Source of the DNA: Myxococcota bacterium
GTDB taxonomy: Bacteria > Myxococcota_A > SURF-8
Direction of reading: 5' to 3'
Length of the DNA stretch: 64,000 nt
Assembly: GCA_965140415.1 (NCBI GenBank)
Contig: OZ223209.1
Coordinates: forward strand, 3,680,001-3,744,000
In this document: piece after piece, positions 3,295-24,241 of the stretch
Position numbering within the stretch: the stretch's first letter is position 1
Layout: every line of letters begins with the position of its first letter
Position numbers and translations under genes: made by a program
Notes under the pieces: model-generated
Seen by the model: the letters and a program-made list of their open reading frames with translations, nothing else
Told to the model about the DNA's origin: nothing
The model's database searches: none

Positions 3295-4389
3295 CTAATG
3301 GCGTCGTCCACGGATATTTTGCACTAATTTCTCGATGTTCATGCGTCCGCGCACGCGCACTTTCCTGATATTATTGAAGATCTGGTTTAAATGACCTAGA
3401 TCCGGCGAAACGACACGCTCGCCTCTCGTATTGTTCAGATCGAATACACCTAGATCTTTGTAATAAACCGGAGCCATTTTCAACAACTCATCCGTGGATA
3501 GCTCATCGAAGCTGGTCACGAAACGGCTCTCCGGTTCCCATTCAAGGATGTAAAGAGACTCCAGCGTTCCAAAAAGTTGCGTGGAATGTTCGCCGTAAAT
3601 GCGATCCACATCGACCTGCACGCTTTCATCCAGCGCCCATAACTCACTTGGTCCCAATTGCCGATAGCGCGTCTGCTTGCCGATACTCAACGAGGACATA
3701 ATCCGATCGTGATGCAGCACGCTGCCTGGATGTACTCTGGGATGCAACGGGTACCCGATCGCCTGCACCAGATCGTCGCGAGAGCGAACCATCAACCGGT
3801 CGAAAGCCGTGAGTTTGAACTTTCGTTCGATCAGATCGAACAAGATCGTCCCCGAAGTTCCTGTGTTGGGCATGGATGCCAGCGAAATGACGTTGTCACC
3901 ATCGCTGATCGCCGCCACATTCAGCAGCAGATAGCCACGACCCGCCAGATACATGCGGGCGAATACAACGTTTAAAAACAATGCAACCTGGTGAATATTC
4001 TCGCGAATATCGCCCACCATAATATGGTTTACACCATCGATATACGCTTCGATACCGTATTTCTTCTTGCGAACCAAACGCCCTTCGAACAGGTCGATGA
4101 ATTCTTCTTTTATCTTCCGCCCGCTTTTACTGCGTACGAAATCCCGCATCTCGTACGAACTTCTGAATCCCGGGATATGGAGCAGATGTACCACCTGAAA
4201 CGCCTCTCCCGAAGCGTCGTCCTCTTCGACATAGCAACGGTGATACTCCCTTACCCGGTCAATCAACAAACGGTCATTGCTGCGGATTTCCAGAATCACG
4301 TTACGAAAGCGCAAGCGCAGGCGAGCGGCTTCATCATCGAAAACCGATTCCGGCAAATTCAGTAGTGATCTGATATGTTCGACAGTCAC
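3295..4389 (-). CDS. HprK-related kinase B-like protein with degenerate P-loop
   Basis: Motifs GRLVRK, DRLMV, PRVHPG and ELWALDE..VDVDRIYG resemble HprK-related kinase B; the Walker A position reads MPNTGTSGT. Confidence 0.7.
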   Translation of the reverse strand: MTVEHIRSLLNLPESVFDDEAARLRLRFRNVILEIRSNDRLLIDRVREYHRCYVEEDDASGEAFQVVHLLHIPGFRSSYEMRDFVRSKSGRKIKEEFIDLFEGRLVRKKKYGIEAYIDGVNHIMVGDIRENIHQVALFLNVVFARMYLAGRGYLLLNVAAISDGDNVISLASMPNTGTSGTILFDLIERKFKLTAFDRLMVRSRDDLVQAIGYPLHPRVHPGSVLHHDRIMSSLSIGKQTRYRQLGPSELWALDESVQVDVDRIYGEHSTQLFGTLESLYILEWEPESRFVTSFDELSTDELLKMAPVYYKDLGVFDLNNTRGERVVSPDLGHLNQIFNNIRKVRVRGRMNIEKLVQNIRGRRH

Positions 4390-4498: not shown

Positions 4499-5149
4499 TC
4501 AATTAAGAATTCCTAGCCAATCCCCCATAATGAAGGTCATACGTCCCACCAGCAAGGAAACACGAGCCATAACGGTATATCCAAATGCCGCACCGAAAGA
4601 GATCATTAAAAACCAGATTCCAACTCGCGCCACCTTTCCTGTTGCACCCTTATGCTCCTTGGAAAAGAAGAAATATACCAGCGCGGAAAGCATCCCCAGC
4701 ACCATGACGCTGTTATTGATCGACTGGCTCCAGTCTAGGTGACGTGCGCCCTCTTCCGTGGAAAACACAAGCAAAGGCAAGATGGTTGCAGCAATCTGAT
4801 TGAGCAGGTTTTCCTTCAAGAAGTTTATGAAGAATATACCGGAATACGTTCCTATTACAAAGGAAATTGAGTATCGACTCACCCAGCCTACCTTGGGGAA
4901 CAATCGCAGCAGCATGAACAAACCAAGCACGGCGGGAATGAGATAAATCGTTTGACCGGCTTGTAAATTGTTTACCAGTTTCGGAACGATGACGTTCCAG
5001 ATCTGCATACAGAACAGATATCCCGCCGAAACGCCGACGAACAGGGATTCGCTGAATTTATAAAAAGGATTGTCCTTATACAAGAACGACCAGATACCCA
5101 GCGTCAATAGCGCCCCGATCCAGATACTGAGATCCGTGCTTATCGCCAT
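4499..5149 (-). CDS. Conserved integral membrane protein (last gene of GlmL operon)
   Basis: About 6 hydrophobic segments; motifs SFLYKDNPFYKFSE and FGAAFGYTVMAR; overlaps the stop of the upstream gene. Confidence 0.8.
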   Translation of the reverse strand: MAISTDLSIWIGALLTLGIWSFLYKDNPFYKFSESLFVGVSAGYLFCMQIWNVIVPKLVNNLQAGQTIYLIPAVLGLFMLLRLFPKVGWVSRYSISFVIGTYSGIFFINFLKENLLNQIAATILPLLVFSTEEGARHLDWSQSINNSVMVLGMLSALVYFFFSKEHKGATGKVARVGIWFLMISFGAAFGYTVMARVSLLVGRMTFIMGDWLGILN

Positions 5150-6033
5150 GACGTTCCTCCTTTCCCGGAACGCCGTCGACTGACGAAATAAGCAACATTG
5201 CCGATGATGATAAACAACATAATCACCACATGCGCCGCCGCCTGGGCCGGCATGAATTCCAAAGCCTGACCCGTCGTCAAATCCAATCCAAGTAGCGCCT
5301 CGTAATCGGCAGCACCTTTCAATCCTCCCAAAAAGCCGACGATCTGCCCAGCCCCTAAATAGGGATAGGCTTCCGCCGCCATTACGGCGGTGCTGGCCGC
5401 TAAAACCCGGTAGTCAGGATTCACCGGCTTGGCGAACATCACCCAGGCCGAGGCAATGGGCGAACCACTCAAGCCACCAGAGGCAAACTCAACGGAAATG
5501 GCGACATCTTCGAAATTGTGAACCCGTTGCATCAAAGCCAACTCACCCAGCGGTGTTCCATACATATCATTTGGAAAGGTCTCGTGAATATCCCGATTCA
5601 TTCCCCGAACCACAAGCATGAACCCGGACATATACCCCAAATGCACGTAATCCTTACCATATGTCAGCTTCATTTCCGCAAATTCAGGTTCGTTCAACAC
5701 ATCTCGCATCGCGCGATCCAATAACGCCGGAGCCTGCGGCCACAGCGCTAAGGTCACGACTTTCGCTTTGCGCCGGAAGGCATGGCGAATCGTCGCCTTG
5801 ACCATCGGCTGAATCTCCGGCGAGGTAGACGGGTCATAAACTCCAGCCAGTGTAACCACTTGGCCGGCCTCCAGTTTTTCCATCTCATCGAAATAAGAGC
5901 GGGAAAAATGACCCGGCTTGATCGGCAGTGGGAACTTGAAAAGCAGAGTCAGCGCCACCGTCAGCCCCATAATCAAGAAGATCACGCGCCGATCGATCGA
6001 CAAAACACGCCTGGCGAAGAGTTGAAGTTTCAT
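5140..6033 (-). CDS. Membrane-anchored protein (TM - soluble alpha/beta domain - TM), GlmL operon
   Basis: Start reassigned to ATG 6033 (TGATG overlap with upstream stop, GGAGGAG upstream); motifs YGKDYVHLGY and GFLGGLKGAADYE. Confidence 0.8.
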   Translation of the reverse strand: MKLQLFARRVLSIDRRVIFLIMGLTVALTLLFKFPLPIKPGHFSRSYFDEMEKLEAGQVVTLAGVYDPSTSPEIQPMVKATIRHAFRRKAKVVTLALWPQAPALLDRAMRDVLNEPEFAEMKLTYGKDYVHLGYMSGFMLVVRGMNRDIHETFPNDMYGTPLGELALMQRVHNFEDVAISVEFASGGLSGSPIASAWVMFAKPVNPDYRVLAASTAVMAAEAYPYLGAGQIVGFLGGLKGAADYEALLGLDLTTGQALEFMPAQAAAHVVIMLFIIIGNVAYFVSRRRSGKGGTSWR

Positions 6034-7532
6034 CAATCTCCTCCTCCCAGGTAGCCGCGTTCCATTCCGAGAATGATTTTCAGCGCCGTGGATACCACAC
6101 CAAAAGCCACACCGATCATAATCGCTCGCTGGCTTGCCATATTGGGATACATCATGATCCAATCTGCCAAATCGGACATCTGCCAGGCTTCCGGTAGCCA
6201 GGAAGTCAAGTAATTTCCAACAGGTACCTGACCAAGCATGACGATGAATCCCGCCGCCAATAATAATGCCGCTTCTTTGGAACGCGCTCGAAAAGCTCGA
6301 AAAGCCGCCGAGGCGATAAAGAAGGCCAATAAAGCAAACATAGTTGAAGATAATGGTGCGTAAATATTATGGAATATCCACTGAAACCCGCTTCCGGAAT
6401 CCAATGGCTTTACGTCCAGCAATACGGCTTTGGAACCCGCTCCGAAAATTGCTTCCAATGCTGCGGTCTTCGTACGCGCGTGAAAAGCATCTTTTGCACC
6501 GTAACTGGCTGCCAATCGTGCCACTTCTTGGCCGATCGAACTGATTTTGCCGCTTTCCGGAGAAAAGATCGATTCCGAGTAGGAATGATTCGAGAAAACC
6601 TTTTGAATTTCATCTTCTTTCGCTGCGTTTCCTGTTTGCATTTTACGGCTATACAACTCGCGAACGCTACGCTGCAAGATCGAAAGCAAAATCAATTCGC
6701 TAACAGAATCCAGTGTAATTATCTGGTCATTATATGGCACGCTGCCGGGCAGCAAAGGAGAAACTGCAACCCGGGCGGATGACTTCAACGACTCCGAAAC
6801 TTCCAGCAAATTCATCGTTTCCAGTTCACTCTTAACCTGTTTCACAAACAGAGTGTTGCCCACCAGAACATCCTGCAATTGTCTTGCATATTCAACGACT
6901 TCACGTCCTAAAGGGGTAGCACTGTCGATCAGTTCCCCAGCTTCTCGTTTCGTTTGATCCAGCAATTTTTCAAAGCGTTCCCGTGTTAGGGGCACCTCCG
7001 AGAAAATTGCAGAAAAGCGCTCCGGTACAATTCGATTGTACCGAATCAGTCCATCGATATCCGCACGACGCACCGTATTTCGTCCCAAAACCTCCTCATC
7101 CGGCACCATGCCCGGATTTTGGATTTTGGTGAAAACCATGGCCGTCAATTCTATTTGCGAAGCAGGCAACGTCGTTTCCCGCTGAAGTACATCCTGCCCG
7201 GCGATTCGAATTAACTGTTCGTTATTACCAAGTATTTTTGTTCGCAAAGCCACTTGTTCACCGGGATTGAGCAGACCGAAAGTGATGGTCACAAGGAAAC
7301 CAAGCACCGTGATTGCAGAATATCCCCAGCCTGCGGTTTGCCGGGAAATCTTTTTTACATTCATGTAAAACAAGTTCAGAATTCCAAGAATCATTGTAAA
7401 GACGAAGACGATCAAGGCAAAATCGTTCAAGGTCCGATCCAGTTCATTGAACGGCGGATGCGGAATAAACGCCTGTAGAATCAAGAAGATTCCCATCACG
7501 GCGGTAATAATAAGCGGAATTTCCTTACGCAT
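6033..7532 (-). CDS. Integral membrane protein with large soluble segment, GlmL operon
   Basis: Three N-terminal TMs, about 290 hydrophilic residues, then TMFALLAFFIASAAFRAFRARS and further TMs; RBS AGGAG. Confidence 0.8.
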   Translation of the reverse strand: MRKEIPLIITAVMGIFLILQAFIPHPPFNELDRTLNDFALIVFVFTMILGILNLFYMNVKKISRQTAGWGYSAITVLGFLVTITFGLLNPGEQVALRTKILGNNEQLIRIAGQDVLQRETTLPASQIELTAMVFTKIQNPGMVPDEEVLGRNTVRRADIDGLIRYNRIVPERFSAIFSEVPLTRERFEKLLDQTKREAGELIDSATPLGREVVEYARQLQDVLVGNTLFVKQVKSELETMNLLEVSESLKSSARVAVSPLLPGSVPYNDQIITLDSVSELILLSILQRSVRELYSRKMQTGNAAKEDEIQKVFSNHSYSESIFSPESGKISSIGQEVARLAASYGAKDAFHARTKTAALEAIFGAGSKAVLLDVKPLDSGSGFQWIFHNIYAPLSSTMFALLAFFIASAAFRAFRARSKEAALLLAAGFIVMLGQVPVGNYLTSWLPEAWQMSDLADWIMMYPNMASQRAIMIGVAFGVVSTALKIILGMERGYLGGGD

Positions 7533-7553
7533 CGAATCTCCTGAAACCGAAAT

Positions 7554-8825
7554 TTAATTGGCGACGTGAAAAATCTGGCGCAATGTTTCTGTTAAAAGCG
7601 GCCACTCGCCAATTTCAGCAACCGTCGCCAAAATCACGGCAACGGAAACAGATAAAATCACCAGCAACTTGCCGTAATCCTGCCCCTTCAAACTTCCCAA
7701 CATCTTGGGTTCTTTAGATAAATACGCCGAAGCGGCGAACAATTCCTCGCCGATCAGGGTGTAGTCGCAGGCAGTAATGAAAAACGGCAATTGCGTTACC
7801 ATGGCAGTTCCGGCAATTTGAATCGCCCCGACGGAATGCCCCGTTTCTGCAAGAATCAACGATTCCGCATAAAACGAGCCCTGGTAAAAGATCGTTGCCG
7901 GGCGTTCGCGAATGATGATGCCATCCACCGCCGCCGCAAATCCGAACTGATCGTCGGTAATGTAATGAACCATTTCATCGCGAAAATCCAAGGAATGTCC
8001 GGTGGCCAAATAGGCTTCGCGCACGATCTCCCGCCCAGCCACCATTGCCATGGAACGCGCCACAGGCACATCGATTTCTGTTTGGTAGCGCGACGTATAG
8101 CGCCCTACCCGCCCTAAAATCGTTAGCCCGGCGATGGTTTGCGGATCATCGACATCCATGATACCAGGAATGAACATGACCTTGCGCCCCGTCTCGGCAG
8201 CACGCCCGACCGCTTCGTCGATGACTTCCAGTCCGTTGATACGCCGGATAAACAAGTCCCGGCCTTTGGAAGCCAGACGAATAAAGAACAAGATCAATGC
8301 CGTTACGATAATGGCGGCAATCAACAGGTTCAAACGCTGAAAATTGAACCAGCTTGCAGTTGCGGTAACCGGACCAATCCAGTCGGAATCTCGGTAACGG
8401 CTTCCGGAGTAAGAACGCACCAGGTATACGGCGGACCGCTCGCCGATGGAGTCGATAAACTGGCTTTCCGGCAGATAGGAAACACTTTGGAGAAGCCGAA
8501 AATCCGCTAAAGTGATTGATTTTGCCTGTGTTTTAAATGCCCGCCAAATTTCGACCTTATCGACGATCTCATTCAGCCGTTCCAACTCTTCCGCTCGATA
8601 AAACCGCCCGCCGAGCATCCATTTCATCGAGACCAGCACGTCACCACCGGAATCGTTCGGTTGATCCGTCACGCTTAAAACAGGAATTGGAAGCCCCTGA
8701 TCCACAACCGGAGTTCGTACTGGCGGTAATTCATCCGAAGCGTTAACAAGCCCAGGAAATCCCAACAGGCAAAGCAGAAACGCCATCCAAATCGGGGTTA
8801 ATATGTAAAACCGTTTTACCATCAC
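7554..8825 (-). CDS. Exported beta-rich (FN3-like) domain + TM + DUF6754-like domain
   Basis: Signal peptide, DQPNDSGG motif, TM, then IRRINGLEVIDEAVGRAAETGR, AESLILAETG, QLPFFITACDYTLIGEELFAASAYL; recalled as DUF6754 family. Confidence 0.75.
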   Translation of the reverse strand: MMVKRFYILTPIWMAFLLCLLGFPGLVNASDELPPVRTPVVDQGLPIPVLSVTDQPNDSGGDVLVSMKWMLGGRFYRAEELERLNEIVDKVEIWRAFKTQAKSITLADFRLLQSVSYLPESQFIDSIGERSAVYLVRSYSGSRYRDSDWIGPVTATASWFNFQRLNLLIAAIIVTALILFFIRLASKGRDLFIRRINGLEVIDEAVGRAAETGRKVMFIPGIMDVDDPQTIAGLTILGRVGRYTSRYQTEIDVPVARSMAMVAGREIVREAYLATGHSLDFRDEMVHYITDDQFGFAAAVDGIIIRERPATIFYQGSFYAESLILAETGHSVGAIQIAGTAMVTQLPFFITACDYTLIGEELFAASAYLSKEPKMLGSLKGQDYGKLLVILSVSVAVILATVAEIGEWPLLTETLRQIFHVAN

Positions 8826-8829
8826 GCGT

Positions 8830-9966
8830 TTATAGGCTTTCTATAACTTCCACGTTCGCACGTGGCACCATCACCAGGTTTCCGTCTGCAAATTCGACTT
8901 GCAACACACGCACCATCGTTCCACTCTGCTGTTGCATCAGCACCTGAGGCAAAGCGCACACCGTTCCGATCTGGCCGAAATACGGGCTTCGAATGCAACG
9001 CACCATGGAACCGACATCCAATCCCAATTGCGTTTGCACTTTGTCGGCTGGATGTAAAGCTGTATCCAAACTTTCCCCCAGCGGGATAATGACTTCAGGC
9101 CGCAGAACTCCCGCTCGAATTTGGGTGGTCCCGTTGATTGAAGCCCGCTCGGTTTCGTGCTCTTTTAATAATCGGAAGGTCTTCGAGGCCATCTCGATCT
9201 GGCCGAACCCTTCCGTCACGATGACCGTCAGACCGATGTCCTCGTTCCCTGTAATCGCCACACCGAGATCGTAGCCGAGATAATCCCGTAAGTCGCGATC
9301 ATCGATGCCGCCCACCACAATGCCGGAAACACCGACTTCCTCAGCACGCCGGATCGCTTGCGCGGTCACTAGGGAGCCTCCGACGATGATACAGCCTTTA
9401 TGCTCCTCTTTAATCAGCGACGCCTCCAGCACATCGCCGGGAGAAGAAGCCAGCACGCACAGCGCGCCATACGCTTCACCGCCGATACCGAAAATTCCTT
9501 GAATAAAAGCCACTTCGCAACGAACCGTCACGCCATGTTCCGAAATGATTTCCGTGACAAGACCCGGTAGATAGGCTTTTACTTCAACCGGCAAAGGTTT
9601 ACCGCGCAAGATCACCTGCCCTGTCACCGTACTGATATTTTCAATCGTTGCAGTTTTCGGAGAATCGATCTTGGATTTGAACAAACCGAAAAAGGAAGAT
9701 GCCTGGGCCAGTCGCTCACCTTTTTGGACTAAATCGCCTGGTTTGTGCAGCATTGCTCCAGTAACTTCTCCCGGACCAATCCCCAATGCAGTGGCAATAT
9801 TCACCGGGTAAACGTCTCCCGGCAATTCCGTTTTCGCCACAACCTGCTCGGCGCCAACCCGATCCCCTTCTTGAACCAGCACCTCTCCCGCAATAGGAAG
9901 GATGCGCTTTTTGGTTAGTGGCATTCGCCCCGCCACTTTCAATCCCGGTGTATACGAACGACTCAT
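8830..9966 (-). CDS. Conserved soluble protein with sandwich-hybrid-like motifs and C-terminal KOW/SH3-like domain
   Basis: VLVQEGDRV..EQVVA and KPGDLVQKGERLA; central IVGGS...GIVVGG; C-terminal VGSMVRCIRSPYFGQIGTV; ATGA overlap with the upstream gene. Confidence 0.75.
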   Translation of the reverse strand: MSRSYTPGLKVAGRMPLTKKRILPIAGEVLVQEGDRVGAEQVVAKTELPGDVYPVNIATALGIGPGEVTGAMLHKPGDLVQKGERLAQASSFFGLFKSKIDSPKTATIENISTVTGQVILRGKPLPVEVKAYLPGLVTEIISEHGVTVRCEVAFIQGIFGIGGEAYGALCVLASSPGDVLEASLIKEEHKGCIIVGGSLVTAQAIRRAEEVGVSGIVVGGIDDRDLRDYLGYDLGVAITGNEDIGLTVIVTEGFGQIEMASKTFRLLKEHETERASINGTTQIRAGVLRPEVIIPLGESLDTALHPADKVQTQLGLDVGSMVRCIRSPYFGQIGTVCALPQVLMQQQSGTMVRVLQVEFADGNLVMVPRANVEVIESL

Positions 9967-11825
9967 ACTACCTCCCGGGAATGTTGCATGGAACGAGACA
10001 CTGCCTCATCACGCTTCGGATAGACTCCTAAAGCATCATTCCACTTCTCCAGGCACTGAACCCATTCCGCACCGGGTTCAGCCGGGACAAAGGGTCTGCC
10101 TCGTCCGTCCAGGATCAAACCGACTTCACCACCTCGCACCTGCTGCCGACTCTTCTTTCCTGCACCAGCCCCAACATCGAATCCGCGCGCCGGTTCAATC
10201 TCCACGACAGCCGTTTCCTCCACTCCCAAAGGAATGACTTTCAGATCCCCAGCGTAAAGTTCCAGCGTGTGGTTTTCTTCCTTTGACGTCTGGACCTGAA
10301 CCCGCATGATCGATTTACCCGGCTTTGCCACTCCTACCGGAGCAATGCAGGTTCCCAGGTAAATCATGCAATCCTTTTCGAAAACTTCCGTCGCCGCACG
10401 CGGATGCAGCACGGACAGCACTCCCAAATGCGGCATCATGAAAATGGAATCGACTGCCAAGGTGGTCACGCCTTCCGGCTGGTAGGCATCCAGCAGCATC
10501 ATCGCAGTTTGCTGACGACGTGGGGCGTGTGACAAAACCCCGCCGGAACCAACGATTAAATCCAGGGCCATCATATCGACAATGGATTCTTCGCTATCGG
10601 TGTCGAAGGCATCGGCAATAGTGCGCTGTTGCTGCACACCTTTAAGCTTGGTGGCAAATTGACGGTGCTGCACGAAAGCCAATCGAAGCGCCTCTTTTGC
10701 GACAGCCTGCTCCAAAATCAAATCGTCCAGAAGTTGTGGGATGGTTGTTGGGCGGATCATCTTGTTTTTAATGGCGTTTCTGAGCTCCCGCTCATCGATG
10801 GCAAAGGGAACCCAGCGCAACACATGATCCAGACCGGCTTCCTTAAACACATTGGCAATGGAATAGCTCATTCCCAGATTAGCGGAAACCGTCCGGTTGA
10901 ATTCTCCCGAAAACACGGAAAATACATCCGTCGTCGCGCCTCCGATATCCACTCCCACCACATTGATGGCTTTCTCTTTGGCAATTGCCTGAACGATCAA
11001 CCCGACCGCGGCAGGTGTGGGCATAATGGGAGAATCCGTCCAGGTCATAAGCTTTTTATACCCCGGAGCCTGCTGCATGACGTGTTCCATGAACAAGTCA
11101 TGAATTTTTTCCCGAGTGGGCGAAAGATTTTCCTGCTCCAGACTGGGACGCAGATTCTCCACCACATCCAGATCGGCCTTTTCAGCAAGCAATTCAGACA
11201 CTTCAGTTCTGGCTTGTTTGGTTCCGGCATAGATTACCGGCAATTGATAGGTCGAGCCCAGACGCGGTTTCGGATCGGCAGCGGAAATCAACTCCGCCAA
11301 GGAAACCACATGTTCGATGCGTTCGGCATCATCGGTCATTCCCGCCAGAACGATCATATCCGGTCTCAAACGACGAATTCTTTCGATCTGCTGATAAGGC
11401 AAACGGTTGTCGTTACAGGAAATGGTGTCCATCACGATGGCACCGGCTCCCAATGCAGCACGTTCGGCGGATTCCGCCGTCATGCTCCGCACAACTCCCG
11501 CCACCATCATCTGTAGCCCCCCACCCGCTGAACTGGTGGAAATATACACATCGCAGCCAATTGGAGCCCCATCCTTTTCAGCCGGTCGAATGATGTTTCC
11601 CTGTTCGTCGAGTAACCGGCGACCGGATAATTCTTCCAACTCCTGAAAAGCGTTAATCACGCCACGCGTAACATCCTCTATCGGAGCTTCGACGGTCGTA
11701 GGCGCTTCACCTCGAAACGTTTGACGATATTCGTTTCCTATTCTTTCAAACAGGATCGCTTTGGTGGTTGTACTGCCACAATCGGTGGCGACAATCACCC
11801 GGATATCCTCGGGATTAATCGCCAT
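9963..11825 (-). CDS. Glutamate mutase L (GlmL/MutL)-family ASKHA-fold ATPase, long form
   Basis: Phosphate-1 DCGSTTTKA, SSAGGGL, IMPTP, phosphate-2 VDIGGATTDVFS, RTVSANLGMSYS, IVGSGGVLSHAP; start set at ATG 11825. Confidence 0.85.
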   Translation of the reverse strand: MAINPEDIRVIVATDCGSTTTKAILFERIGNEYRQTFRGEAPTTVEAPIEDVTRGVINAFQELEELSGRRLLDEQGNIIRPAEKDGAPIGCDVYISTSSAGGGLQMMVAGVVRSMTAESAERAALGAGAIVMDTISCNDNRLPYQQIERIRRLRPDMIVLAGMTDDAERIEHVVSLAELISAADPKPRLGSTYQLPVIYAGTKQARTEVSELLAEKADLDVVENLRPSLEQENLSPTREKIHDLFMEHVMQQAPGYKKLMTWTDSPIMPTPAAVGLIVQAIAKEKAINVVGVDIGGATTDVFSVFSGEFNRTVSANLGMSYSIANVFKEAGLDHVLRWVPFAIDERELRNAIKNKMIRPTTIPQLLDDLILEQAVAKEALRLAFVQHRQFATKLKGVQQQRTIADAFDTDSEESIVDMMALDLIVGSGGVLSHAPRRQQTAMMLLDAYQPEGVTTLAVDSIFMMPHLGVLSVLHPRAATEVFEKDCMIYLGTCIAPVGVAKPGKSIMRVQVQTSKEENHTLELYAGDLKVIPLGVEETAVVEIEPARGFDVGAGAGKKSRQQVRGGEVGLILDGRGRPFVPAEPGAEWVQCLEKWNDALGVYPKRDEAVSRSMQHSREVV

Positions 11826-12195
11826 ATTGCATTGCCTTTTCCGATTCACCCTGTTCCAAACATTCTATCTCGTGAATAAGCTGCTCCAGATTCCGACGAT
11901 CACTTAATAATTCCGATAGGTTATCGAACGATTCGCTTTCGAAAACAGATTTGTACAAAGGCGCGATGACATGCATAACTTGATTGCCGATCGGACTGAC
12001 AGGTCGCACGCTTTCAAGCAGCAGAACGGCTGGGGCGCTCATTTGACGAGCGACGATCTCCTTTGCCAGCCGTCGCAGGAACTCATCCGTTTTCCGTTCT
12101 ATTGCAAGATCTTGCTCCGGCTCCACTTGAAAAGCATGCCTGAACCAGGCAAGCAGCGATCTCCCACTCTTCTTATGCTGCCCAAACTGACGCAC
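11815..12195 (-). CDS. Small conserved hypothetical protein (first gene of GlmL operon)
   Basis: Motif EIVARQMSAPAVLLLESVRP; RBS GGAGG; overlaps the GlmL start. Confidence 0.7.
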   Translation of the reverse strand: MRQFGQHKKSGRSLLAWFRHAFQVEPEQDLAIERKTDEFLRRLAKEIVARQMSAPAVLLLESVRPVSPIGNQVMHVIAPLYKSVFESESFDNLSELLSDRRNLEQLIHEIECLEQGESEKAMQYGD

Positions 12196-12306
12196 CGTCT
12201 GTTTCCCTCCCGAATCACCTGTTTACAAGACGAAGAACTGGTTTCAACCTTGTTGAATAAGCCAACAGTGTACTCAAGATCAGGCAATAAATCCAACCTT
12301 ATCCAA

Positions 12307-12345
12307 TAAAAACGCCCGGTCCATCGTTTGATGGTAACCGGGCGT
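12307..12345 (-). terminator. Rho-independent terminator
   Basis: ACGCCCGGT-CCATC/GATGG-ACCGGGCGT hairpin with U tract on the minus strand, downstream of 12389..13033. Confidence 0.75.
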
Positions 12346-12388: not shown

Positions 12389-13033
12389 TTATCCTTTTTT
12401 GGACTTGCGAGTCGCTTTCTTTTCCGGTCCCAGAATATCCGCTAACGCCAAGCCTTTGATTTTAGCGTAACTACGCTCGAAACGCTTGCGCGCCGCAACA
12501 CTGGAGAAATACTTTCCTTTCAAATCGGCTTCGGCAACAACTTCACCACTGCTCGGATATCCAAAGCGTGTTTCCAGCGAAGAGCTGATTTGCTCCAGAA
12601 CTTCTTTCTCCGGGAAGGATTTTTTCTGATCTGCAACAATCACGAACTTCACGGATTCGCCGGTGCGCTTGTATTCCAAATTCCAGAATACGGAAATGAC
12701 ATGGGAGCTGTGCGCCTTCAAAGGCTTGGTAATCAACTGAGCAGCTTCCTTGGCCAATCCTCGTTCGGTTTCAAACACGGGTTCCAGAAGCTCCCAAATC
12801 ACGCGATGATCCCGGTTAATGGTATAGGAGTATGCACGTCCTACAGCCTTGCGGAACAGGGCCTTGTTTTTCACCAGGCTATCCAGCGAAAGCTGGCAGG
12901 AACGCGGTGAAATATTAGCTAATGAGGCGATGCGGCGACCTGTCATGGCATCGTCCGATTCGTACAATACTCTCAAGATTTCAACTTTAGAAGTTGTTCC
13001 CAACAAGTAATTTAACATTTTGCTTTGAGTCAT
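12389..13033 (-). CDS. Winged-HTH protein fused to a degenerate nucleotidyltransferase-like domain
   Basis: N-terminal LLGTTSKVEILRVL...TGRRIASLANIS...VGRAYSYTINRDH is typical of HTH-MNT fusions; the C-domain lacks GS and DxD. Confidence 0.65.
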   Translation of the reverse strand: MTQSKMLNYLLGTTSKVEILRVLYESDDAMTGRRIASLANISPRSCQLSLDSLVKNKALFRKAVGRAYSYTINRDHRVIWELLEPVFETERGLAKEAAQLITKPLKAHSSHVISVFWNLEYKRTGESVKFVIVADQKKSFPEKEVLEQISSSLETRFGYPSSGEVVAEADLKGKYFSSVAARKRFERSYAKIKGLALADILGPEKKATRKSKKG

Positions 13034-13830
13034 TTCCTGTCTCCTTTTTTCAATTGATTCCTGTTTGCTTTACTTCTGAAAACAAAGTCTGTGTTACATA
13101 ACTAAAAACACACGTAACTCTTACAAATCGATCACACAAAAAATCCTACTTGTGACCTTCCCGCCAAAATCGGCCACAACATTTGAACTACAACGGCAAT
13201 CCTATCCAATATCTAACCAGTGCAAATTGAATCCTATTCCGAACGACACTTAAAATATCTACTATTTAACAAAATACCACCGATTAGCGTCATGAAATGA
13301 ACGCTTAATAGACATATCTTGCTTTTGACAACCAGATGAAAGATTCGGCAATCCAATAGATCAAATTCGGGCAAACTAAAGCCACACAATACAATGACTA
13401 ATTTACCACCGCAACAAAAGGATCACCTATTTGCCACACTTATTCCCGATTTTCCAGCATTTCGGTGCAAAAACAATCCATTATCAAACAACAACCAACT
13501 ATATTACACCAACGCCCTTGCCGAACGGAACACTTTCAATGTCAGGAAATCACTACCCAAAGCATTATGTCAGTACGACACGGTCTTTACACTGGAGTAA
13601 ATCATGTATTTTATATACAGCACGAGACCACATGTGTCAACAAAAAAAAGGAAAACTTGCCTTAAATATAATTCTCTACTGCTTCGGTGTACAAGCGATA
13701 TATAGGAAGAATCCAGGAGCATATCGAATACGATTCCACCCTGCACCTGCAAAACGGATCTGCTTGTATTCGACAGGATGATACCTGGCTAATCCAGGTA
13801 AAAGGATGAATCAATCTTTTCCATGTATGA

Positions 13831-13865
13831 GAAAACCCATCGCCGGTATGACGATGGGTTTTTTC
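13831..13865. terminator. Intrinsic terminator (possibly bidirectional)
   Basis: AAAACCCATCG-N9-CGATGGGTTTT, 30 nt past the stop of 13895..16522. Confidence 0.8.
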
Positions 13866-13894
13866 ATTAACCAAGTTTATTTATATAGCTGTTG

Positions 13895-16522
13895 CTATTC
13901 AATCTCCTGAGATTCAGCGGCATCGACATCAAGTTCGATCTCGACATCTCCGTCTACGTCACCATCAACGTCACCGTCAACATCCCCATCCACGACCGGA
14001 GTTTCACAGGTTGTGGCTTCCCACTCTCCAAATGCCTCGACAGCCTGTAGAACGGTACCCTTTTCTCCTGCAAAATAAACCTGATCGGGGCTGCGTCCCC
14101 AGATTTCGTTCAGACGCAAGGAGACTCCTGTATCTACTTTCTCGAAACAGAGGCCATCGCCGGACCAATACAGATTCCCTTGATCCGAAACGATGAAGAT
14201 GTGATTTTCGTCTGTACCCCAGACCTTCAAGAAGCTCTCCTCGGCAACGGCTCCAGCCACGGACAGTTTCAGGAAGTGATTCCCATCGTAGAGCCATGCA
14301 CCGGCGTGATCCCCGACGAAATAGACAGCATCGTTATCTTCGCCCCATACCGCATTGAGCGCCCCGACATCGGCACCGGAGGAGAAATCATCGAAATCGA
14401 TGAATTCCCAGCTATAGGTATCGGCATCGCCTCCACCCGGCGGCAATCGATGAGCGGCAATCCCTTCATTGCCGACAACCCAAACATTGCTGAAACTCGA
14501 CGCCCACACGCCATTCCAGGTGTTCATGTCATTCTGTACAAGTTCTGGGAAATTGACTTTGTCATTGCCGGGCGAGAAGTAGAAAGCCATCTCTTCACCT
14601 ACGGCAAACATCGTATCGTCGTTGAGACCGTATGCATCCCGAATGATACCGGTAAACAATGAGCTTTCAAAAGCGGTCAGGATCGGTCCGGCTCCACCCC
14701 AAACCCGAACTTCATGACTGAAGAAATAGACCTGGCCGGTGCTGACGATCCAGATGTCACCAATTGGATAAACACCCAAATTTTCATCATCCAAGTTGTC
14801 CAGATATTGCCAGGTGCTGTTAGCGGAATTGTCAGTATCCAAATAGTAAACGTCGCCATTAACGCTGGTTTTGTACAGAACCGGACCACGTCCCCATAGA
14901 GCTTCGACGTCACTTGGAGCGCCGGAAGCATCTTTACGAGAAGCCTGCTTATTGATTTGCGTCCAGGTTCCAAGATGCGGATTGAATCCCCACACCACAC
15001 CATAATCTCCTACCGCCACGGCGATACCATCTTCAGTAACATCCACCCCGTACAACGTGTCCTGAGCAGGCGCATCCGGCAAACGCTTCCAAATATGATT
15101 TTCCAGGAATTCTGGGGCATTTTCCACGACGCCACCTATATAGACCGGGTTCTCACCCTCTACCAGGCGATATGCAGCGCCTCCTTCTCCAACCGCGAAA
15201 ATCATGTCACCACGCCCGGCAACGGCATAGAAGGTTGGTGAAGAAGTATCATCCTGCGGGTCTCCCATGAATTGAGAAAAATCCCACCAGGAAACATTGT
15301 CGTAATAACTGATGGTTTTGCTCGATCCAACTGCGATCACGTGTTCTTCATCCAGTCCCCACACACCATACAGGTTTTCATTGTTCTGACAGGCCGGATC
15401 GAGAATGTTAAACGTATACTGATCGGTCGATTTCAGCGCCTTACAGTTGTCACCGACAACCATGTAAGTCGTATCGGCGATACCCCACATTGCGTTCAAT
15501 GTTTCAGCAGTTCCGGTACGACGCTTGTTCCAATCGATCAGGTACTGATACAAAACGCCTAATTCACCTACCGCATAGAAATTCGCACCATCGGAATAGG
15601 CTCCGAAGAAATCCAACCCTGCCGTGCCAGCCGCTCCAAAGTTCGCCTTATCGACCGCACTCCATTCGTCATTTTCAAGCTTCAGCACCGTCGCATCGTT
15701 TCCTGCCGCATACACCAGGCTGTCATCCACACCGTGAATGCCATTCATACGCGGCAATGTCGAAGACATCTGCCCCTCCGAAAACGACTCAAGATCGAAC
15801 ATGGTTCGTAGTCCATTGTCTCCTGAAATCCATAAACTGGAATCCGGGCTCCACCATGCCCCGGTCAATCGATGGCCGGTCGGCCAAGGGCTGTTCCAGC
15901 AAATGGAATCCGAAGAACAGATATTCCCCAGGAAACTGTCACCGAAAATGAAAGGCGGAACGGCGTCTTCCTCTATCTCCGCTTCCATTTCCTGATCCGG
16001 TTCGATTTCGGCATCCATATCGCCGTCGATGACGATGTCTCCCTCAAGATCGCCATCCACATCACCATCCATATCGCCGCCATCGCCATCCTCATCGCCG
16101 TCGACTTCCACCTCGCTCACTTCTCCGTCGAGATCTCCATCTTCCACATCACCGTCGATGATCGTATCTCCATCCGGCTCCTCAACACACTTGCCTTCGG
16201 CAACACAGATCGGAGAATCAAACAGCTCGCAGCATACCAGGTCATCGCTGTCACAAGTCTTTCCGGCATTGCAAGGCTCGTTTTCACCACCGGTTGGACC
16301 ATAGCATTCCGTTTCGGTGATGCACGTGAGTGTATCCGGGCAACAAATGATATGACGGTCAGGATCATCCTGGAACAGGCCGGAATCCTGGCAGAGGTAG
16401 TTTTTATTACAGGATTGTCCTTCTTTACCCACACCGTCATTCATGCAAGCTGTCATGGGAAGCAGCAATGTAAAAGCAGCAGTCAGGCCAAGCAACCATT
16501 TTATCATCAGGGAAGTCCGCAC
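13895..16522 (-). CDS. Large lipoprotein: Cys-rich N-terminus, acidic DGD linker, beta-propeller repeats, DGD tail
   Basis: Lipobox MTAC; repeats L.xxWG....AVG..G about every 40-45 aa (YCF48-like propeller); start set at GTG 16522 (start uncertain). Confidence 0.75.
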   Translation of the reverse strand: MRTSLMIKWLLGLTAAFTLLLPMTACMNDGVGKEGQSCNKNYLCQDSGLFQDDPDRHIICCPDTLTCITETECYGPTGGENEPCNAGKTCDSDDLVCCELFDSPICVAEGKCVEEPDGDTIIDGDVEDGDLDGEVSEVEVDGDEDGDGGDMDGDVDGDLEGDIVIDGDMDAEIEPDQEMEAEIEEDAVPPFIFGDSFLGNICSSDSICWNSPWPTGHRLTGAWWSPDSSLWISGDNGLRTMFDLESFSEGQMSSTLPRMNGIHGVDDSLVYAAGNDATVLKLENDEWSAVDKANFGAAGTAGLDFFGAYSDGANFYAVGELGVLYQYLIDWNKRRTGTAETLNAMWGIADTTYMVVGDNCKALKSTDQYTFNILDPACQNNENLYGVWGLDEEHVIAVGSSKTISYYDNVSWWDFSQFMGDPQDDTSSPTFYAVAGRGDMIFAVGEGGAAYRLVEGENPVYIGGVVENAPEFLENHIWKRLPDAPAQDTLYGVDVTEDGIAVAVGDYGVVWGFNPHLGTWTQINKQASRKDASGAPSDVEALWGRGPVLYKTSVNGDVYYLDTDNSANSTWQYLDNLDDENLGVYPIGDIWIVSTGQVYFFSHEVRVWGGAGPILTAFESSLFTGIIRDAYGLNDDTMFAVGEEMAFYFSPGNDKVNFPELVQNDMNTWNGVWASSFSNVWVVGNEGIAAHRLPPGGGDADTYSWEFIDFDDFSSGADVGALNAVWGEDNDAVYFVGDHAGAWLYDGNHFLKLSVAGAVAEESFLKVWGTDENHIFIVSDQGNLYWSGDGLCFEKVDTGVSLRLNEIWGRSPDQVYFAGEKGTVLQAVEAFGEWEATTCETPVVDGDVDGDVDGDVDGDVEIELDVDAAESQEIE

Positions 16523-16565
16523 GGTCCGTTCCTTTCGTTCTTCCTTGGATTTTCTCGTAGGAAAG

Positions 16566-17765
16566 TTAAAACTCCACATCAGCTTTTAGCAGGACACCAT
16601 CATCGGTAATACCGATACCACCGCCCGCGCCGATATTCTTCGCATTCTGCCAGTCCACGATAAACAGGATTACAGAGGTCAGCAATAACGCCCCTCCGGT
16701 TCCGTACATGGCATTGGAGGTAATCATGTACGTTCTGCTTTTATCGTTGTAATCTTTTAGCTCTGGGATGGAAGCAGCCTTATCCGCATTGGATTGTTCC
16801 TTGTTCGATAAATACCCGAACACCAGCCCCAAACCCTCCGCGACGACCCCGGTTGCCAACGTAGTCCAGGCGGCAATACCAACACCGGGATTCCGTTCCA
16901 GCTGCGGTTGTGGCAAGTCTTCGTACAGCAGAGCCATATCATCCGAGTTCGAAGGCGACGTCATCAATACGGGAACTTCGGTAATCAATCCCAATTCAAT
17001 CAACGACTTATGATACTCTTGCTGCCCGACTTCCGCCAAACGTTCCATACTGGTCTGGGTAACCAGTATCTCCTTTAAAACTCGTCGATTCGGCAAATCG
17101 ATAATTCGGACAAAAAGAGTGAACTCCGCAAACATCTGCTCTTTGGGAGCGGCACCAATCGGATTGGTCCCCATCGATGGAGCCATTCCACCTTCAGTTA
17201 ATGTACTAGGATCAACCGCGCTCATCCGAACTTTTCCCGCGATCAGAATATCCAGACTGGCAGGCTTCAATGCAACCTGCAAACAACCGGGGTCCAACCA
17301 GCAGCGGTTATATAATACCAGTTCTCTGGGTCCCATGGTCTTGACGATTTCTTCATGGGGAATGACCGTATTATTAAAGGCGTTGATTTCCTTCGTTTCT
17401 TCAGTTACTGCGCGCGTAAGCAGTTCCCGTTTGGAGGCTTCGATTTTTTGCTCCACCTCAAACGTGGGACGCATCTCCAACACACCGATACGAAAAACTT
17501 TTTGATCGAGTTGCTCCGCTTTTTCCCGTGTCGGTCCCCGCTGCGCATCGTTTCCGGTTTGAACCGTATCCGCATCGTCAGAAGACATGGGAACGGTATC
17601 ATCATCATCGGATTGGGCGAAGCTGACTCCAGGCCAAGCCAACAAACAAACCGCCGTTAAAACCATGAGAACACTTCGATAATCAATCAGTCTCATCATC
17701 CAGCTCACTTTATTGACACTATTGTAATTTCTAATGGATTTTTGCCCCAGATCGAACCGTGCCAT
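16566..17765 (-). CDS. Exported/membrane hypothetical protein with C-terminal hydrophobic hairpin
   Basis: Signal-like segment ending SFA-Q; C-terminal AAWTTLATG...GLGLVFG and YGTGGALLL...F, as in myxobacterial PEGA/TPR-associated proteins; start uncertain. Confidence 0.65.
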   Translation of the reverse strand: MARFDLGQKSIRNYNSVNKVSWMMRLIDYRSVLMVLTAVCLLAWPGVSFAQSDDDDTVPMSSDDADTVQTGNDAQRGPTREKAEQLDQKVFRIGVLEMRPTFEVEQKIEASKRELLTRAVTEETKEINAFNNTVIPHEEIVKTMGPRELVLYNRCWLDPGCLQVALKPASLDILIAGKVRMSAVDPSTLTEGGMAPSMGTNPIGAAPKEQMFAEFTLFVRIIDLPNRRVLKEILVTQTSMERLAEVGQQEYHKSLIELGLITEVPVLMTSPSNSDDMALLYEDLPQPQLERNPGVGIAAWTTLATGVVAEGLGLVFGYLSNKEQSNADKAASIPELKDYNDKSRTYMITSNAMYGTGGALLLTSVILFIVDWQNAKNIGAGGGIGITDDGVLLKADVEF

Positions 17766-19180: not shown

Positions 19181-19449
19181 GATTTCCTCTCGATTCGGAG
19201 TTGTCGTGTAACGAATAGCGGATCCGATCTGCATTAGTATCCATTCCTCGATAAAAGTCAAGTTTGCAATCCACCCGAACTGATACATCTAACAACATCT
19301 CACCTCTGATGAGTAGCACAGCAAAAAGGTCATTGCCAAATTTCTCCATTGATCGATTGACTCTTTGTGCTACGTTTCCTGTACCATATTCCACTTCTCC
19401 AGAGCATTCAGACCTTGGAATAGGTTGCTTCGATTGGTTTGGTTTCTCC

Positions 19450-19477
19450 TTGACATTTCAAGGGCTTCTGCTAACAT
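19450..19477 (+). promoter_or_regulatory. sigma70-type promoter of lspA-lgt
   Basis: TTGACA-N16-TAACAT with TG extended -10. Confidence 0.55.
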
Positions 19478-19566
19478 GGCGCGATCTAATTCGATGCCGT
19501 CAGCGCTATTTGGTTAACGATATTAAATACATGCGGGATGCATGTATTCCAAAGCAAGGAATTCAC

Positions 19567-20112
19567 GTGTTAAATCGAAAACGAAAGTATCTTCTGGCCA
19601 TTGCTATCCCTGCTGTCATTCTGGATCAGTTGACGAAGTGGTGGGCGATGTCGCTAGAGTTTCGTCCTCCGGTCGAAATTATCGAGAACTTTTTCCACTT
19701 CATCTACGTGGAAAACAAGGGAGCCGCATGGTCCATGTTCGCGGATCTGCCGGACAACATTCGAATTCCGTTCTTTGCTGTCATCTCATTTATTTCCGTT
19801 GGCTTTGTCCTGTATTTCTTCACTAAAATCGAAAACCACCACACCGGTCTGATCGTCGGTCTTTCCAGTATTTTAGGCGGTGCTCTTGGCAATGTAATCG
19901 ATCGTTTCACGCGCGACGGTGTCATCGACTTCATCGACTGGCATTACTACAATCATCACTGGCCAACATTCAATGTTGCCGACATTTACATCACGGTGGG
20001 CGTCGGGCTGCTGTTAATCGAAATGTTTTTCGGAAAAAGCGATCTTTCGCTATTCCACCGACCGGAGGAATCTGAACAAAAAACCGATTCCTCAAGCCCT
20101 TCCAATAACTGA
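19567..20112 (+). CDS. lspA: Lipoprotein signal peptidase II
   Basis: LDQLTK, NKGAAWS, GGALGNVIDR, VIDFI, WPTFNVAD; start GTG 19567 with RBS AAGGA. Confidence 0.95.
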   Translation: MLNRKRKYLLAIAIPAVILDQLTKWWAMSLEFRPPVEIIENFFHFIYVENKGAAWSMFADLPDNIRIPFFAVISFISVGFVLYFFTKIENHHTGLIVGLSSILGGALGNVIDRFTRDGVIDFIDWHYYNHHWPTFNVADIYITVGVGLLLIEMFFGKSDLSLFHRPEESEQKTDSSSPSNN

Positions 20113-20118
20113 TCGACC

Positions 20119-21063
20119 ATGTTTCCCACTCTGTTGAAAATAGAGGCGTTTTCATTTCTCGGCAGTGAATGGGGACCTTTCAACGTTCATAGCTACGGCA
20201 TTCTGATTGCGACGGGCTTCGTTTTAAGCACCCTAATCGCCATTCGGCTTGGCAAACAGGATCGCATCAAACCCGATGATCTGCTGGATCTGGCTTTCTG
20301 GCTGCTATTAGCCGGGGTCATCGGAGCCAAACTGCTCTATGCCGTGCTCAATCTTGGCAGCTATTACAATGCCTGTTTCCATCCGGAAATCCCCAATGCA
20401 CTGAATCACAACTTGCCACTCAATCAACCCGAGTGCTGGCGATTGCTTCAGGTTTGGGAAGGGGGCATGGTCTGGTTCGGCGGTTTGCTTGGCGGTTTGC
20501 TGGCAGGTTATCTATTCCTGAAGAAACGAAGACTTTCCTTCCCTGTCGTGGCCGACGCCGCATTGGGAGCGATTCCTTTCGGGCACTTTATCGGAAGGCT
20601 GGGTTGTCTTTCGGCGGGATGTTGTTGGGGTCGTGTTACCAGCGGTCCTTTAGGCGTAACGTTTCCAAAAGACAGCCTGCCTTACACGACCGAACTGGGA
20701 GAAAACATGGCACATACACTTCATTCAGTCGTTGTGCCACTACATCCCACCCAATTATACGAAGCGGCGGGCGAACTGCTGATCTTCTTCATTCTGCTGG
20801 GAGTTCGTTACAAGCGTCGCTTCTATGGCCAGGTTGCATTGACCTTTTTGATTCTTTACTCGGCGCTCCGCTTTACAGTGGAATTTTTCCGGGGCGATCG
20901 CAACCGGGGGTTCCTTATATCCTGGGAGCATGAACAGATTATCGAGAATCTTCGAATCAGCGAACGGATCGGCATCAGCACCTCACAAGTGATCGCCCTG
21001 CTTGTTGTTATTGGTGCAATCCTCTGGATGCGTCGTTTACTTGCTCACAACGATGCAAAGTGA
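20119..21063 (+). CDS. lgt: Prolipoprotein diacylglyceryl transferase
   Basis: SYG, WEGGMVWFGG, GRLGC, HPTQLYE, RFTVEFFR. Confidence 0.95.
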   Translation: MFPTLLKIEAFSFLGSEWGPFNVHSYGILIATGFVLSTLIAIRLGKQDRIKPDDLLDLAFWLLLAGVIGAKLLYAVLNLGSYYNACFHPEIPNALNHNLPLNQPECWRLLQVWEGGMVWFGGLLGGLLAGYLFLKKRRLSFPVVADAALGAIPFGHFIGRLGCLSAGCCWGRVTSGPLGVTFPKDSLPYTTELGENMAHTLHSVVVPLHPTQLYEAAGELLIFFILLGVRYKRRFYGQVALTFLILYSALRFTVEFFRGDRNRGFLISWEHEQIIENLRISERIGISTSQVIALLVVIGAILWMRRLLAHNDAK

Positions 21064-23635: not shown

Positions 23636-24171
23636 GGGGCAAAAACCAGCGGATATTCAACAGATACACGCTGGCGAGAAGGAAGGCGGGGAAAACGAAT
23701 GTGGCGAATGACGCGAATGATACAAGCCTCCGTCTCAACGTGATTCAGGCTTGATTCCACCACTTTCACAGTCGAAACCCGACCGGTCGGGCTGATATTG
23801 AAGCGGACGTCAACTTCACCGGCTGCTTGAGGATTGGCAGACAATGCCTTTTTGTAACATACCTTGAAAGAAGAACGCCGCTTGCTCATAACCCGGCGGA
23901 ACATTTCCGGATCGATGGGCGAACTACTTTTCAGCTTCGCCCCATCCAGCGGCATCAGTCCTTCATGAAAAGGCTGTTTGGCGGAGATGGAATCTGCTTC
24001 GGCGGATGTGATTTTGGCATTATCGGCACTTGTGGTTGCAGAGGCTGGTTCAACACCTTTGGGTGTTTCTTCACAGGCCAGCACCGAAACAACTGTAATG
24101 GCAATTAAAAAAGAGGCAAGCGCCCCTTTTCTATACCGTCTCCGGCTTTGATTTCTGTTCAAGTTCGACAC
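23632..24171 (-). CDS. Lipoprotein with AgmX/PglI (TonB-C-like) C-terminal domain
   Basis: Lipobox VLAC; FKVCYKKAL..NPQAAGEVDVRFNISPTGRV...ACI...IRFP...VEYPLVF. Confidence 0.85.
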   Translation of the reverse strand: MSNLNRNQSRRRYRKGALASFLIAITVVSVLACEETPKGVEPASATTSADNAKITSAEADSISAKQPFHEGLMPLDGAKLKSSSPIDPEMFRRVMSKRRSSFKVCYKKALSANPQAAGEVDVRFNISPTGRVSTVKVVESSLNHVETEACIIRVIRHIRFPRLPSRQRVSVEYPLVFAP

Positions 24172-24192
24172 AAACCATGCCTTTTATATAGC

Positions 24193-24232
24193 GCCATCGA
24201 GATTCCTAAACCTTTGGGGGAATCTCGATGGC
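24193..24232. other. Strong intergenic hairpin between the AgmX/PglI genes
   Basis: GCCATCGAGATTCC / GGAATCTCGATGGC perfect 14-bp stem. Confidence 0.7.
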
Positions 24233-24241
24233 AAACAGATG

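Follow-up and report, generated by a model that had tools for sequence, protein, structure and literature searches.

What does an ATPase of the glutamate mutase reactivase type do in an operon that holds no mutase? The question is raised by a 64,000-nt stretch of the genome of a Myxococcota bacterium (contig OZ223209.1, positions 3,680,001 to 3,744,000; this whole stretch is called the window here), in which seven genes, named g1 to g7, lie on the minus strand at 4499-12195. The second gene, g2, encodes a long-form MutL/GlmL ATPase of the ASKHA fold, carried in databases as "glutamate mutase L", and is followed by the gene of a soluble protein, g3, and by four genes for membrane proteins, g4 to g7. 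A first, sequence-only reading had proposed that this ATPase serves an uncharacterised membrane complex and not a B12 mutase, and our analysis supports it. The seven genes very probably form a real conserved system that is unrelated to B12 mutases, and the g2-g3 pair likely acts on g4-g7. Gene content, folds, synteny, co-occurrence and gene fusions lead us to lean, by a little, towards one conserved membrane-associated ATPase system in which g2-g3 drives the g4-g7 membrane module; the energising step and the kind of work described below are what we infer.

All seven open reading frames were confirmed (Table 1), co-oriented and with the overlapping or near-abutting junctions that had been described, and the order of soluble protein, ATPase, soluble protein and four membrane proteins agrees with hydropathy, which shows no transmembrane (TM) segment in g1-g3 and two to six in each of g4-g7. 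Adjacent genes overlap by 11 nt (g1 stop 11815, g2 ATG 11825), 4 nt (g2 stop 9963, g3 ATG 9966), 1 nt (g5 stop and g6 ATG both at 6033) and 10 nt (g6 stop 5140, g7 ATG 5149), or are separated by gaps of 4 nt (g3 stop 8830, g4 GTG 8825) and 21 nt (g4 stop 7554, g5 ATG 7532). The internal starts of g2 (11825) and g6 (6033) match the conserved N-termini of their orthologues in alignments, and g1 starts with a GTG codon with GGGAGGG just ahead of it. The product of g1 has no match in Pfam or NCBIfam.

Table 1. Positions in the window of the seven genes and of the terminator at their 5′ border.
Feature	Positions	Strand	Description
g1	11815-12195	-	126 aa, soluble, no family
g2	9963-11825	-	620 aa, ASKHA ATPase, long-form MutL/GlmL (PF13941)
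g3	8830-9966	-	378 aa, soluble, partner of g2
g4	7554-8825	-	423 aa, membrane, FN3 + DUF6754
g5	6033-7532	-	499 aa, membrane, 3 + 3 TM helices
g6	5140-6033	-	297 aa, bitopic membrane protein
g7	4499-5149	-	216 aa, polytopic, ~5 TM helices
Hairpin and T-run terminating the upstream 214-aa gene	12305-12345	-	read directly; operon 5′ boundary

A search with an alignment of DUF6754, the family of g4, found at least 614 loci in species-representative genomes, of which 75 were kept for study; synteny was counted over the 42 loci flanked on each side by 6 kb or more. The genes g5, g6 and g7 stand next to g4 in 41 of these 42 loci, and g2, g3 and g1 are present in 16, 17 and 13 of them, respectively. 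Homologues of g1 directly precede g2 in 15 of the 75 related loci, and also in L092-L095. The complete g1-g7 order is conserved across phyla, with eight or more named lineages carrying it (Zixibacteria, Ignavibacteria, Coatesbacteria, Fermentibacteria, Aegiribacteria, Fidelibacterota, Phycisphaerae and one Eisenbacteria genome), and because it recurs in this way the arrangement is far beyond chance. The system as a whole occurs in Zixibacteria, WOR-3, Fermentibacteria, Marinimicrobia, Ignavibacteria, Gemmatimonadota, Planctomycetota, the phylum of our organism and others. Some genomes hold an orphan g4-g7 block; in five of five such genomes a g2 orthologue is encoded elsewhere (774-829 bits, 60-66% identity), and in two of the five it sits in a second, complete g1-g7 cluster.

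The same linkage is seen when whole genomes are compared. Among 201 evenly sampled genomes of the organism's own phylum, DUF6754 was found in 23 and MutL above the cut-off in 23, with both in 22; the single genome with DUF6754 only is an assembly of 180 contigs, and the single genome with MutL only (G073) carries two short forms. In the WOR-3-type phylum (that of G002), represented by 61 genomes of 1.4-3.3 Mb, DUF6754 occurs in 57, MutL in 56 and both in 55. Related genomes are not independent in these counts, but two distant phyla, and at least ten families of the first, show the same pattern. A lack of synteny between long-form GlmL homologues and these membrane genes was part of what the sequence-only reading had named as a refutation; synteny and co-occurrence (22 of 23 and 55 of 57 DUF6754 genomes) point the other way. 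The near-universal, multi-copy presence in genomes as small as those of the WOR-3 sample suggests a central physiological role, for example in nutrient uptake or envelope maintenance.

Genomes typically hold one g2 match and two to six DUF6754 matches; the WOR-3 sample gave 140 DUF6754 and 65 MutL matches, which are numbers of matches and not of gene copies. Two or three tandem g4-g5-g6-g7 modules were present in 21 of 76 loci (54 modules), and in a FastTree phylogeny of the DUF6754 domain none of the 54 was closest to a module of its own locus and no clade was made up of one locus only, so that the module copies are old, maintained paralogues. A single ATPase pair would thus be common to several diverged membrane modules, much as ECF-type transporters share an energising module. 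The same ratio would also suit a different role, in which g2-g3 is a chaperone, an assembly or quality-control factor or a sensor-coupled switch that remodels or gates g4-g7 now and then and does not energise every working cycle, while the module itself runs on ion-motive force or is passive. The known relatives of g2 are regarded as chaperones for repair, not as motors (GlmL and Or-4 and, more distantly, the dehydratase reactivases, for the latter PMC7674605), and g2-g3 is unlinked from the membrane blocks in many genomes. The exceptional conservation of g2 (59-67% identity across phyla) and its near-perfect co-occurrence with DUF6754 fit either role and do not decide between them; we consider this explanation improbable.

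The ATPase itself matches the broad MutL family PF13941 over the full model (410.4 bits, model positions 1-450 of 450, residues 11-486; gathering cut-off 27) and falls far below the equivalog cut-offs of GlmL (NF040745, 213.4 bits, cut-off 475) and Or-4 (NF040744, 205.5 bits, cut-off 600). With these proteins it shares the ASKHA phosphate-1, phosphate-2 and adenosine motifs (DCGSTTTK, DIGGATTD and SGGxLSHAP), all three of which are invariant in an alignment of 23 orthologues, in line with the intact phosphate motifs reported at the outset. The mean column identity of these 23 sequences is 68%, the 22 others all coming from other phyla, and a C-terminal extension of ~135 aa, conserved among them, distinguishes g2 from GlmL and Or-4, to which it is 27-30% identical. 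Its partners differ as well, being g3 and a membrane module in place of mutase subunits. No solved structure in the PDB was matched by the g2 sequence profile.

GlmL normally stands beside glutamate mutase and its relative OraF beside ornithine aminomutase, as the sequence-only reading had stated, and both arrangements were recovered, with short forms of MutL, as positive controls in G073, a genome of the same phylum: a 480-aa MutL in a glmS-MutL-glmE-methylaspartate ammonia-lyase operon and a 433-aa MutL in an oraS-oraE-MutL-racemase operon. In none of the loci examined did the long form adjoin glmS/glmE or oraS/oraE. The absence of any mutase or B12-binding gene from the operon and from the whole window was confirmed; in a scan of the whole genome the nearest PF02310 matches lie ~140 kb away on either side, PF06368 (GlmE) is absent, and PF09043 (KamD) is found 2.9 Mb from the operon. 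PF16552 was also unmatched in this genome, and the control genomes gave no match either.

The KamD match belongs to a lysine 5,6-aminomutase (kamD and kamE, C1:801816-804069), and g2 is the only PF13941 gene of the genome. It might therefore be an ordinary B12-enzyme reactivase that acts in trans on KamDE, its neighbouring membrane genes being unrelated. The kamDE genes, however, lie in a lysine-fermentation cluster (L099, C1:795000-812000) that includes, in this order, kamA, a gene for a 340-aa protein without assigned function, a gene for a 538-aa MutS_V-domain protein, kamD and kamE and contains no MutL, and the MutS_V-domain protein could be KamDE's own helper. Neither of the two mutase families searched for, PF06368 and PF09043, is present in any of five other genomes with the long form, of which three are single-record chromosomes, and long-form GlmL homologues thus do not co-occur with these mutases; the mutase-linked MutL proteins of G073 are short and only 27% and 30% identical to g2; and g2 tracks DUF6754 through both genome samples. 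The explanation in trans is largely refuted by these data and in our view extremely improbable.

The predicted model of g3 (predicted local distance difference test score, pLDDT, 85.8) comprises three domains, and its matches, as retrieved with VIA, are of fold-class level only, since Z scores of 7-10 are common for unrelated models according to the tool's own warning. Domain 1 (~17-150) is a barrel-sandwich hybrid, matching the N-terminus of RnfC (Z 7.5), the urea carboxylase carrier domain (Z 7.4) and NqrA (Z 7.2); domain 2 (~152-297) is a swivelling beta/beta/alpha domain, matching Enzyme I of the phosphotransferase system (PTS; Z 9.9, root-mean-square deviation (rmsd) 2.6, 105 aa) and rifampin phosphotransferase (Z 9.0); and domain 3 (~313-378) is a KOW/SH3-like barrel, matching the Spt5 KOW domain (Z 9.1). 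A search of the PDB with the g3 sequence profile gave nothing significant. The likeness to RnfC/NqrA concerns the small N-terminal domain only (g3 ~49-123 superposes on RnfC 8ahx_C and NqrA 4u9o_A); the flavin and Fe-S domains are lacking, g4-g7 match no Rnf/Nqr family in Pfam or NCBIfam, and the Pfam RnfC_N match is weak (20.6 bits, below the cut-off of 25.6). Nor does this domain look like a biotinyl or lipoyl carrier, as its Biotin_lipoyl match (17.6 bits) is below the cut-off of 22.1 and the only invariant lysine is K19 near the N-terminus, K45 of the window protein being Arg in the consensus.

For domain 2 (residues 152-296) the best matches are the phosphohistidine swivelling domains of phosphoenolpyruvate (PEP)-utilising enzymes (2wqd_A and 5hv1_A), and as RraA (Z 8.8) and the aconitase X small subunit (Z 8.2) match almost equally, only the fold class is shared. 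At the expected place of the catalytic His motif of PEP-utilising enzymes g3 reads GG.DD.DL in an alignment made by eye with the Enzyme I motif, and among 24 aligned g3 sequences no His or Cys is invariant and no His even nearly so, so that a PTS-like phosphohistidine relay is unlikely.

Gene fusions tie these proteins together. In 47 protein clusters (974-1022 aa, covering at least 98% of g3) g2 and g3 are joined into one protein, with forms of ~1000 aa in Marinimicrobia among such natural fusions, and a single-sequence record has g3 fused to the N-terminus of a whole g4, which is topologically consistent and could be a read-through artefact. Several further observations concern the g2-g3 region. 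A divergent second family of g2-g3-like fusions (P0171-P0195, 25 rows, ~960 aa) is found in Cloacimonetes, Aegiribacteria and Fermentibacteria; its members share 26-35% identity with g3 across 58-75% of the g3 length, some have precomputed Pfam matches to PF05896 (NQRA), PF13375 (RnfC_N) or helix-turn-helix (HTH) families, and they may represent a paralogous system. In Zixibacteria a family-less gene of 251 aa lies between g2 and g3 (L029:6879-7634, minus strand; also L013, L031, L039 and L091), without counterpart in the window, and a gap of ~850 bp is seen at this place in L020 and L021 and similarly in L030, where the locus ends within g2. On a WOR-3 chromosome, the g2 match of L090 (G002:C1:1295365-1297176) contains one in-frame TGA, which could reflect recoding, a genuine interruption of the gene or an error of sequencing; its PF13941 part lies in an open frame of 609 aa.

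In the membrane module, g4 combines, as had been supposed, an FN3-like and a DUF6754-like domain: it matches PF20539 (DUF6754) with 371.5 bits (model positions 2-249 of 257, gathering cut-off 27), and in the PDB its profile finds matches through the FN3 domain only (titin FN3, 8.8e-12), a domain also backed by the predicted model (pLDDT 90.5). A signal peptide (8-26) is followed by the periplasmic FN3 domain (~45-160), a TM helix (162-186), the cytoplasmic DUF6754 domain (~195-371) and a long TM helix (373-405). The DUF6754 domain is predicted to be of the alpha/beta Rossmann-like type, with only generic Rossmann neighbours (Sir2, LpxB, KTN/RCK and transhydrogenase dIII, Z 9-10), and Foldseek returned only matches of low TM-score, topped by the Nir2 LNS2 domain with an rmsd of ~25 Å. 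A HAD-like DxDxT phospho-aspartate was considered and rejected, as the Asp after beta-1, invariant in a set of 18 sequences, is no longer so in a set of 55. The remaining three proteins matched no family above the cut-off in Pfam or NCBIfam (transporters, ABC-2, FtsX and MFS included). In g5 an insertion of ~300 aa separates TM3 from TM4, most orthologues being of 205-235 aa (L065 and L093, for example, have a short g5), and g6 consists of a TM helix (17-35), a domain of ~230 aa and a second TM helix (266-284) with the invariant residues H268 and N279. By the positive-inside rule the g6 domain and the g5 insertion are probably periplasmic and DUF6754 cytoplasmic. The TM cores of g5 and g7 are conserved in alignments. 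No family recurs in more than two of 42 g6 members, g6 and g7 had no PDB match by sequence profile, hhalign detected no homology of g6 with g4 or of g7 with g5, and in the ESM Atlas g6 matched unnamed clusters only and g7 no usable named cluster. The membrane genes thus match no characterised transporter in Pfam, NCBIfam or the PDB sequence profiles, and here, too, the initial proposal stood.

From these parts a working scheme can be drawn. The ASKHA-fold ATPase g2 and g3 would form an obligate cytoplasmic pair, and g4-g7 an inner-membrane module whose FN3 domain, g6 domain and, in this organism, large g5 insertion would face the periplasm and whose Rossmann-like DUF6754 domain would be presented to the cytoplasm. 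The ATP cycle of g2 would move g3, which would engage the cytoplasmic face of the module, most plausibly by docking onto DUF6754, and the TM helices would relay the conformational change, so that work is done at the inner membrane or across it. A predicted complex of g3 with the cytoplasmic domain of g4 (186-390) scored 0.00, which says nothing either way. Most likely the work would consist in moving a substrate from periplasm to cytoplasm or the other way; we favour translocation because of the polytopic g5/g7 cores, the invariant polar residues in TM2 of g6 and the TonB-receptor context described below, and propose transport or translocation tentatively, as topology and context suggest.

The extracytoplasmic parts could instead be the business end. 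ATP hydrolysis by g2-g3 may move the periplasmic domains (g4 FN3, g6 and the g5 insertion) with nothing crossing the inner membrane, as in MacB, LolCDE and FtsEX, and would act on some target in the envelope, for example lipoproteins, a periplasmic protease, the Tol-Pal or TonB apparatus or the outer membrane. These domains are protein-interaction modules that differ between lineages: in place of the FN3 domain of our g4, a homologue (L083:8309-10771, plus strand) has an N-terminal PQQ_2/BamB-like beta-propeller, and a long g5 homologue (L036:14908-16686, plus strand) contains FG-GAP repeats inside the insertion. A solitary DUF6754 protein without g5-g7 alongside (L019:9992-12379, plus strand) is fused at its C-terminus to Peptidase_S49 (SppA/NfeD-like), and the layout of g6, with a periplasmic domain between two TM helices, would also fit. 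Polytopic g5 and g7 with conserved TM cores and the H268 and N279 of g6 would, however, suit a translocation path, and no sequence or profile link to FtsX or MacB was detected. Bathyarchaeota is the commonest phylum of one g6-like Atlas cluster, a lead only, which if true would mean that an outer membrane is not required. We judge such purely mechanical transmission unlikely.

The gene neighbourhoods of related loci bear on both substrate movement and mechanical transmission. In Fermentibacteria-type loci g7 is followed by a SusC-like TonB-dependent receptor and exbB-exbD-exbD-tonB, in WOR-3 loci exbB-exbD-exbD-tonB lies a few genes past g7, in L093 a TonB-dependent receptor stands immediately after g7, and in three Zixibacteria loci tolQ-tolR-tolA-like-tolB follow g3. 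The ExbBD-TonB genes in two lineages and the Tol genes in a third are hints that would fit a mechanical role; they would also be compatible with uptake downstream of TonB-dependent receptors, which we regard as quite unlikely. Genes of the glycine cleavage system (gcvT/H/PA/PB) are found ahead of g0 or g1 in several lineages. The gene g0, whose product of ~150 aa has two TM helices and carries a PSRLxxFRG motif, stands immediately ahead of g1 or g2 in 15 of 80 loci (L023, L025, L028, L036, L047, L059, L064, L065, L068, L070, L071, L078, L082, L093 and L095) and in many genomes makes up an eighth gene of the cluster; it is missing from the window, and a profile search, run without a positive control, found none in the rest of the genome.

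Several of these results weigh against an ATP-driven, substrate-moving machine. Adjacency to Tol, TonB or receptor genes is limited to ~13 of 80 loci in ~4 lineages and the glycine-cleavage genes recur equally often, so that the context may reflect inherited gene order and not function. No Rfam family, riboswitches included, was matched at the gathering threshold in the window or in seven full loci, and corrinoid handling or B12 uptake downstream of a TonB receptor is unsupported, no cobalamin riboswitch having been found there. The lack of a transporter family among g4-g7, the low specificity of the g3 fold matches, the missing invariant His and Cys of g3 and the presence of kamDE in the genome, all given above, count on the same side.

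To this list belongs the comparison with B12-dehydratase reactivases (GdrAB/DdrAB). In these, according to PMC7674605, the swivelling domain of an Hsp70-like ATPase holds a Rossmann-like beta subunit that is freed on ATP hydrolysis, and the proposed coupling of the g2 ATPase, the swivelling beta/beta/alpha domain of g3 and the Rossmann-like domain of g4 parallels this by analogy. The parallel is architectural and falls short of a demonstrated structural match, because the reactivase swivelling domain (1NBW or 2D0O) was not among the 50 matches listed for g3 in either of two VIA comparisons. Sequence comparison likewise gave no sign of a relationship. In g4 the Rossmann-like domain is tethered between two TM helices, and no B12 enzyme appears to be involved, though no search aimed at dehydratase genes was made.

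ECF-type transporters share one energising module, and MacB, LolCDE and FtsEX are mechanotransmitting ATP-binding cassette (ABC) systems. They resemble g1-g7 in having a cytoplasmic ATPase unit that serves several diverged modules per genome and in their sizeable periplasmic domains; they differ in that the ATPase of g1-g7 has the ASKHA fold and is not a P-loop ABC protein. EcfT, S-components and FtsX showed no detectable relation to g4-g7 in general library scans, in which they were not searched as families.

As a system, g1-g7 is of no kind described so far, and its function is a prediction from sequence. No description of it was found in the full-text literature, subscription journals and supplements aside. 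If the membrane-associated ATPase system is real, it is widespread and strongly conserved and has so far gone undescribed; DUF6754 and three nameless families would gain functions, and an actin/Hsp70-fold ATPase would join the few kinds of engine that drive processes at the bacterial inner membrane. The label "glutamate mutase L" can in the meantime mislead metabolic reconstructions of uncultured phyla towards B12-dependent glutamate fermentation. A further step, which we think rather unlikely, would be to see here a new class of primary active membrane machine, with an ASKHA ATPase and a swivelling adaptor as the motor, one motor for up to six interchangeable four-protein modules, and periplasmic domains that select cargo or target; it would then be a core housekeeping system in WOR-3-type bacteria, as the DUF6754 marker is present in 57 of their 61 small genomes.

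The borders of the unit were also considered. The terminator that had been placed behind an upstream HTH gene is present, as a GC-rich hairpin with a stem of 9 bp (12345-12337 / 12320-12312) and a T-run behind it, 3′ of the stop of that gene (ACGCCCGGT ... ACCGGGCGT, then TTTTTATT); it was overlooked by the pattern scan because its loop is 16 nt long. The HTH label of this 214-aa gene was not borne out, as no Pfam or NCBIfam match was obtained at E<=0.01. Downstream of g7, the gene at 3295-4389 (minus strand) encodes a protein resembling HprK-related kinase B (TIGR04355, 139 bits, below the cut-off of 200). Neither this gene nor the upstream 214-aa gene recurs in any of the 75 related loci, and the unit therefore consists of the seven genes g1-g7. 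The kinase-like gene has its own strong promoter-like site (TTGACA-18-TATAGT, 4483-4454).

Further upstream, at 13895-16579 (minus strand), lies a gene for a secreted protein of 894 aa, in which Cys-rich stretches and long acidic stretches of D/E-G repeats occur, overlapped by a gene for a membrane-anchored protein of 399 aa (16566-17765, minus strand); neither belongs to a Pfam family, and an AT-rich stretch (GC content 0.39, 13001-14000) separates the pair from the operon. The lipoprotein-maturation genes lsp (Peptidase_A8) and lgt follow as a pair at 19264-21063 (plus strand), and a TPR protein and two TonB_C-domain proteins are encoded at 22208-24823 (minus strand), ~11 kb upstream of g1.

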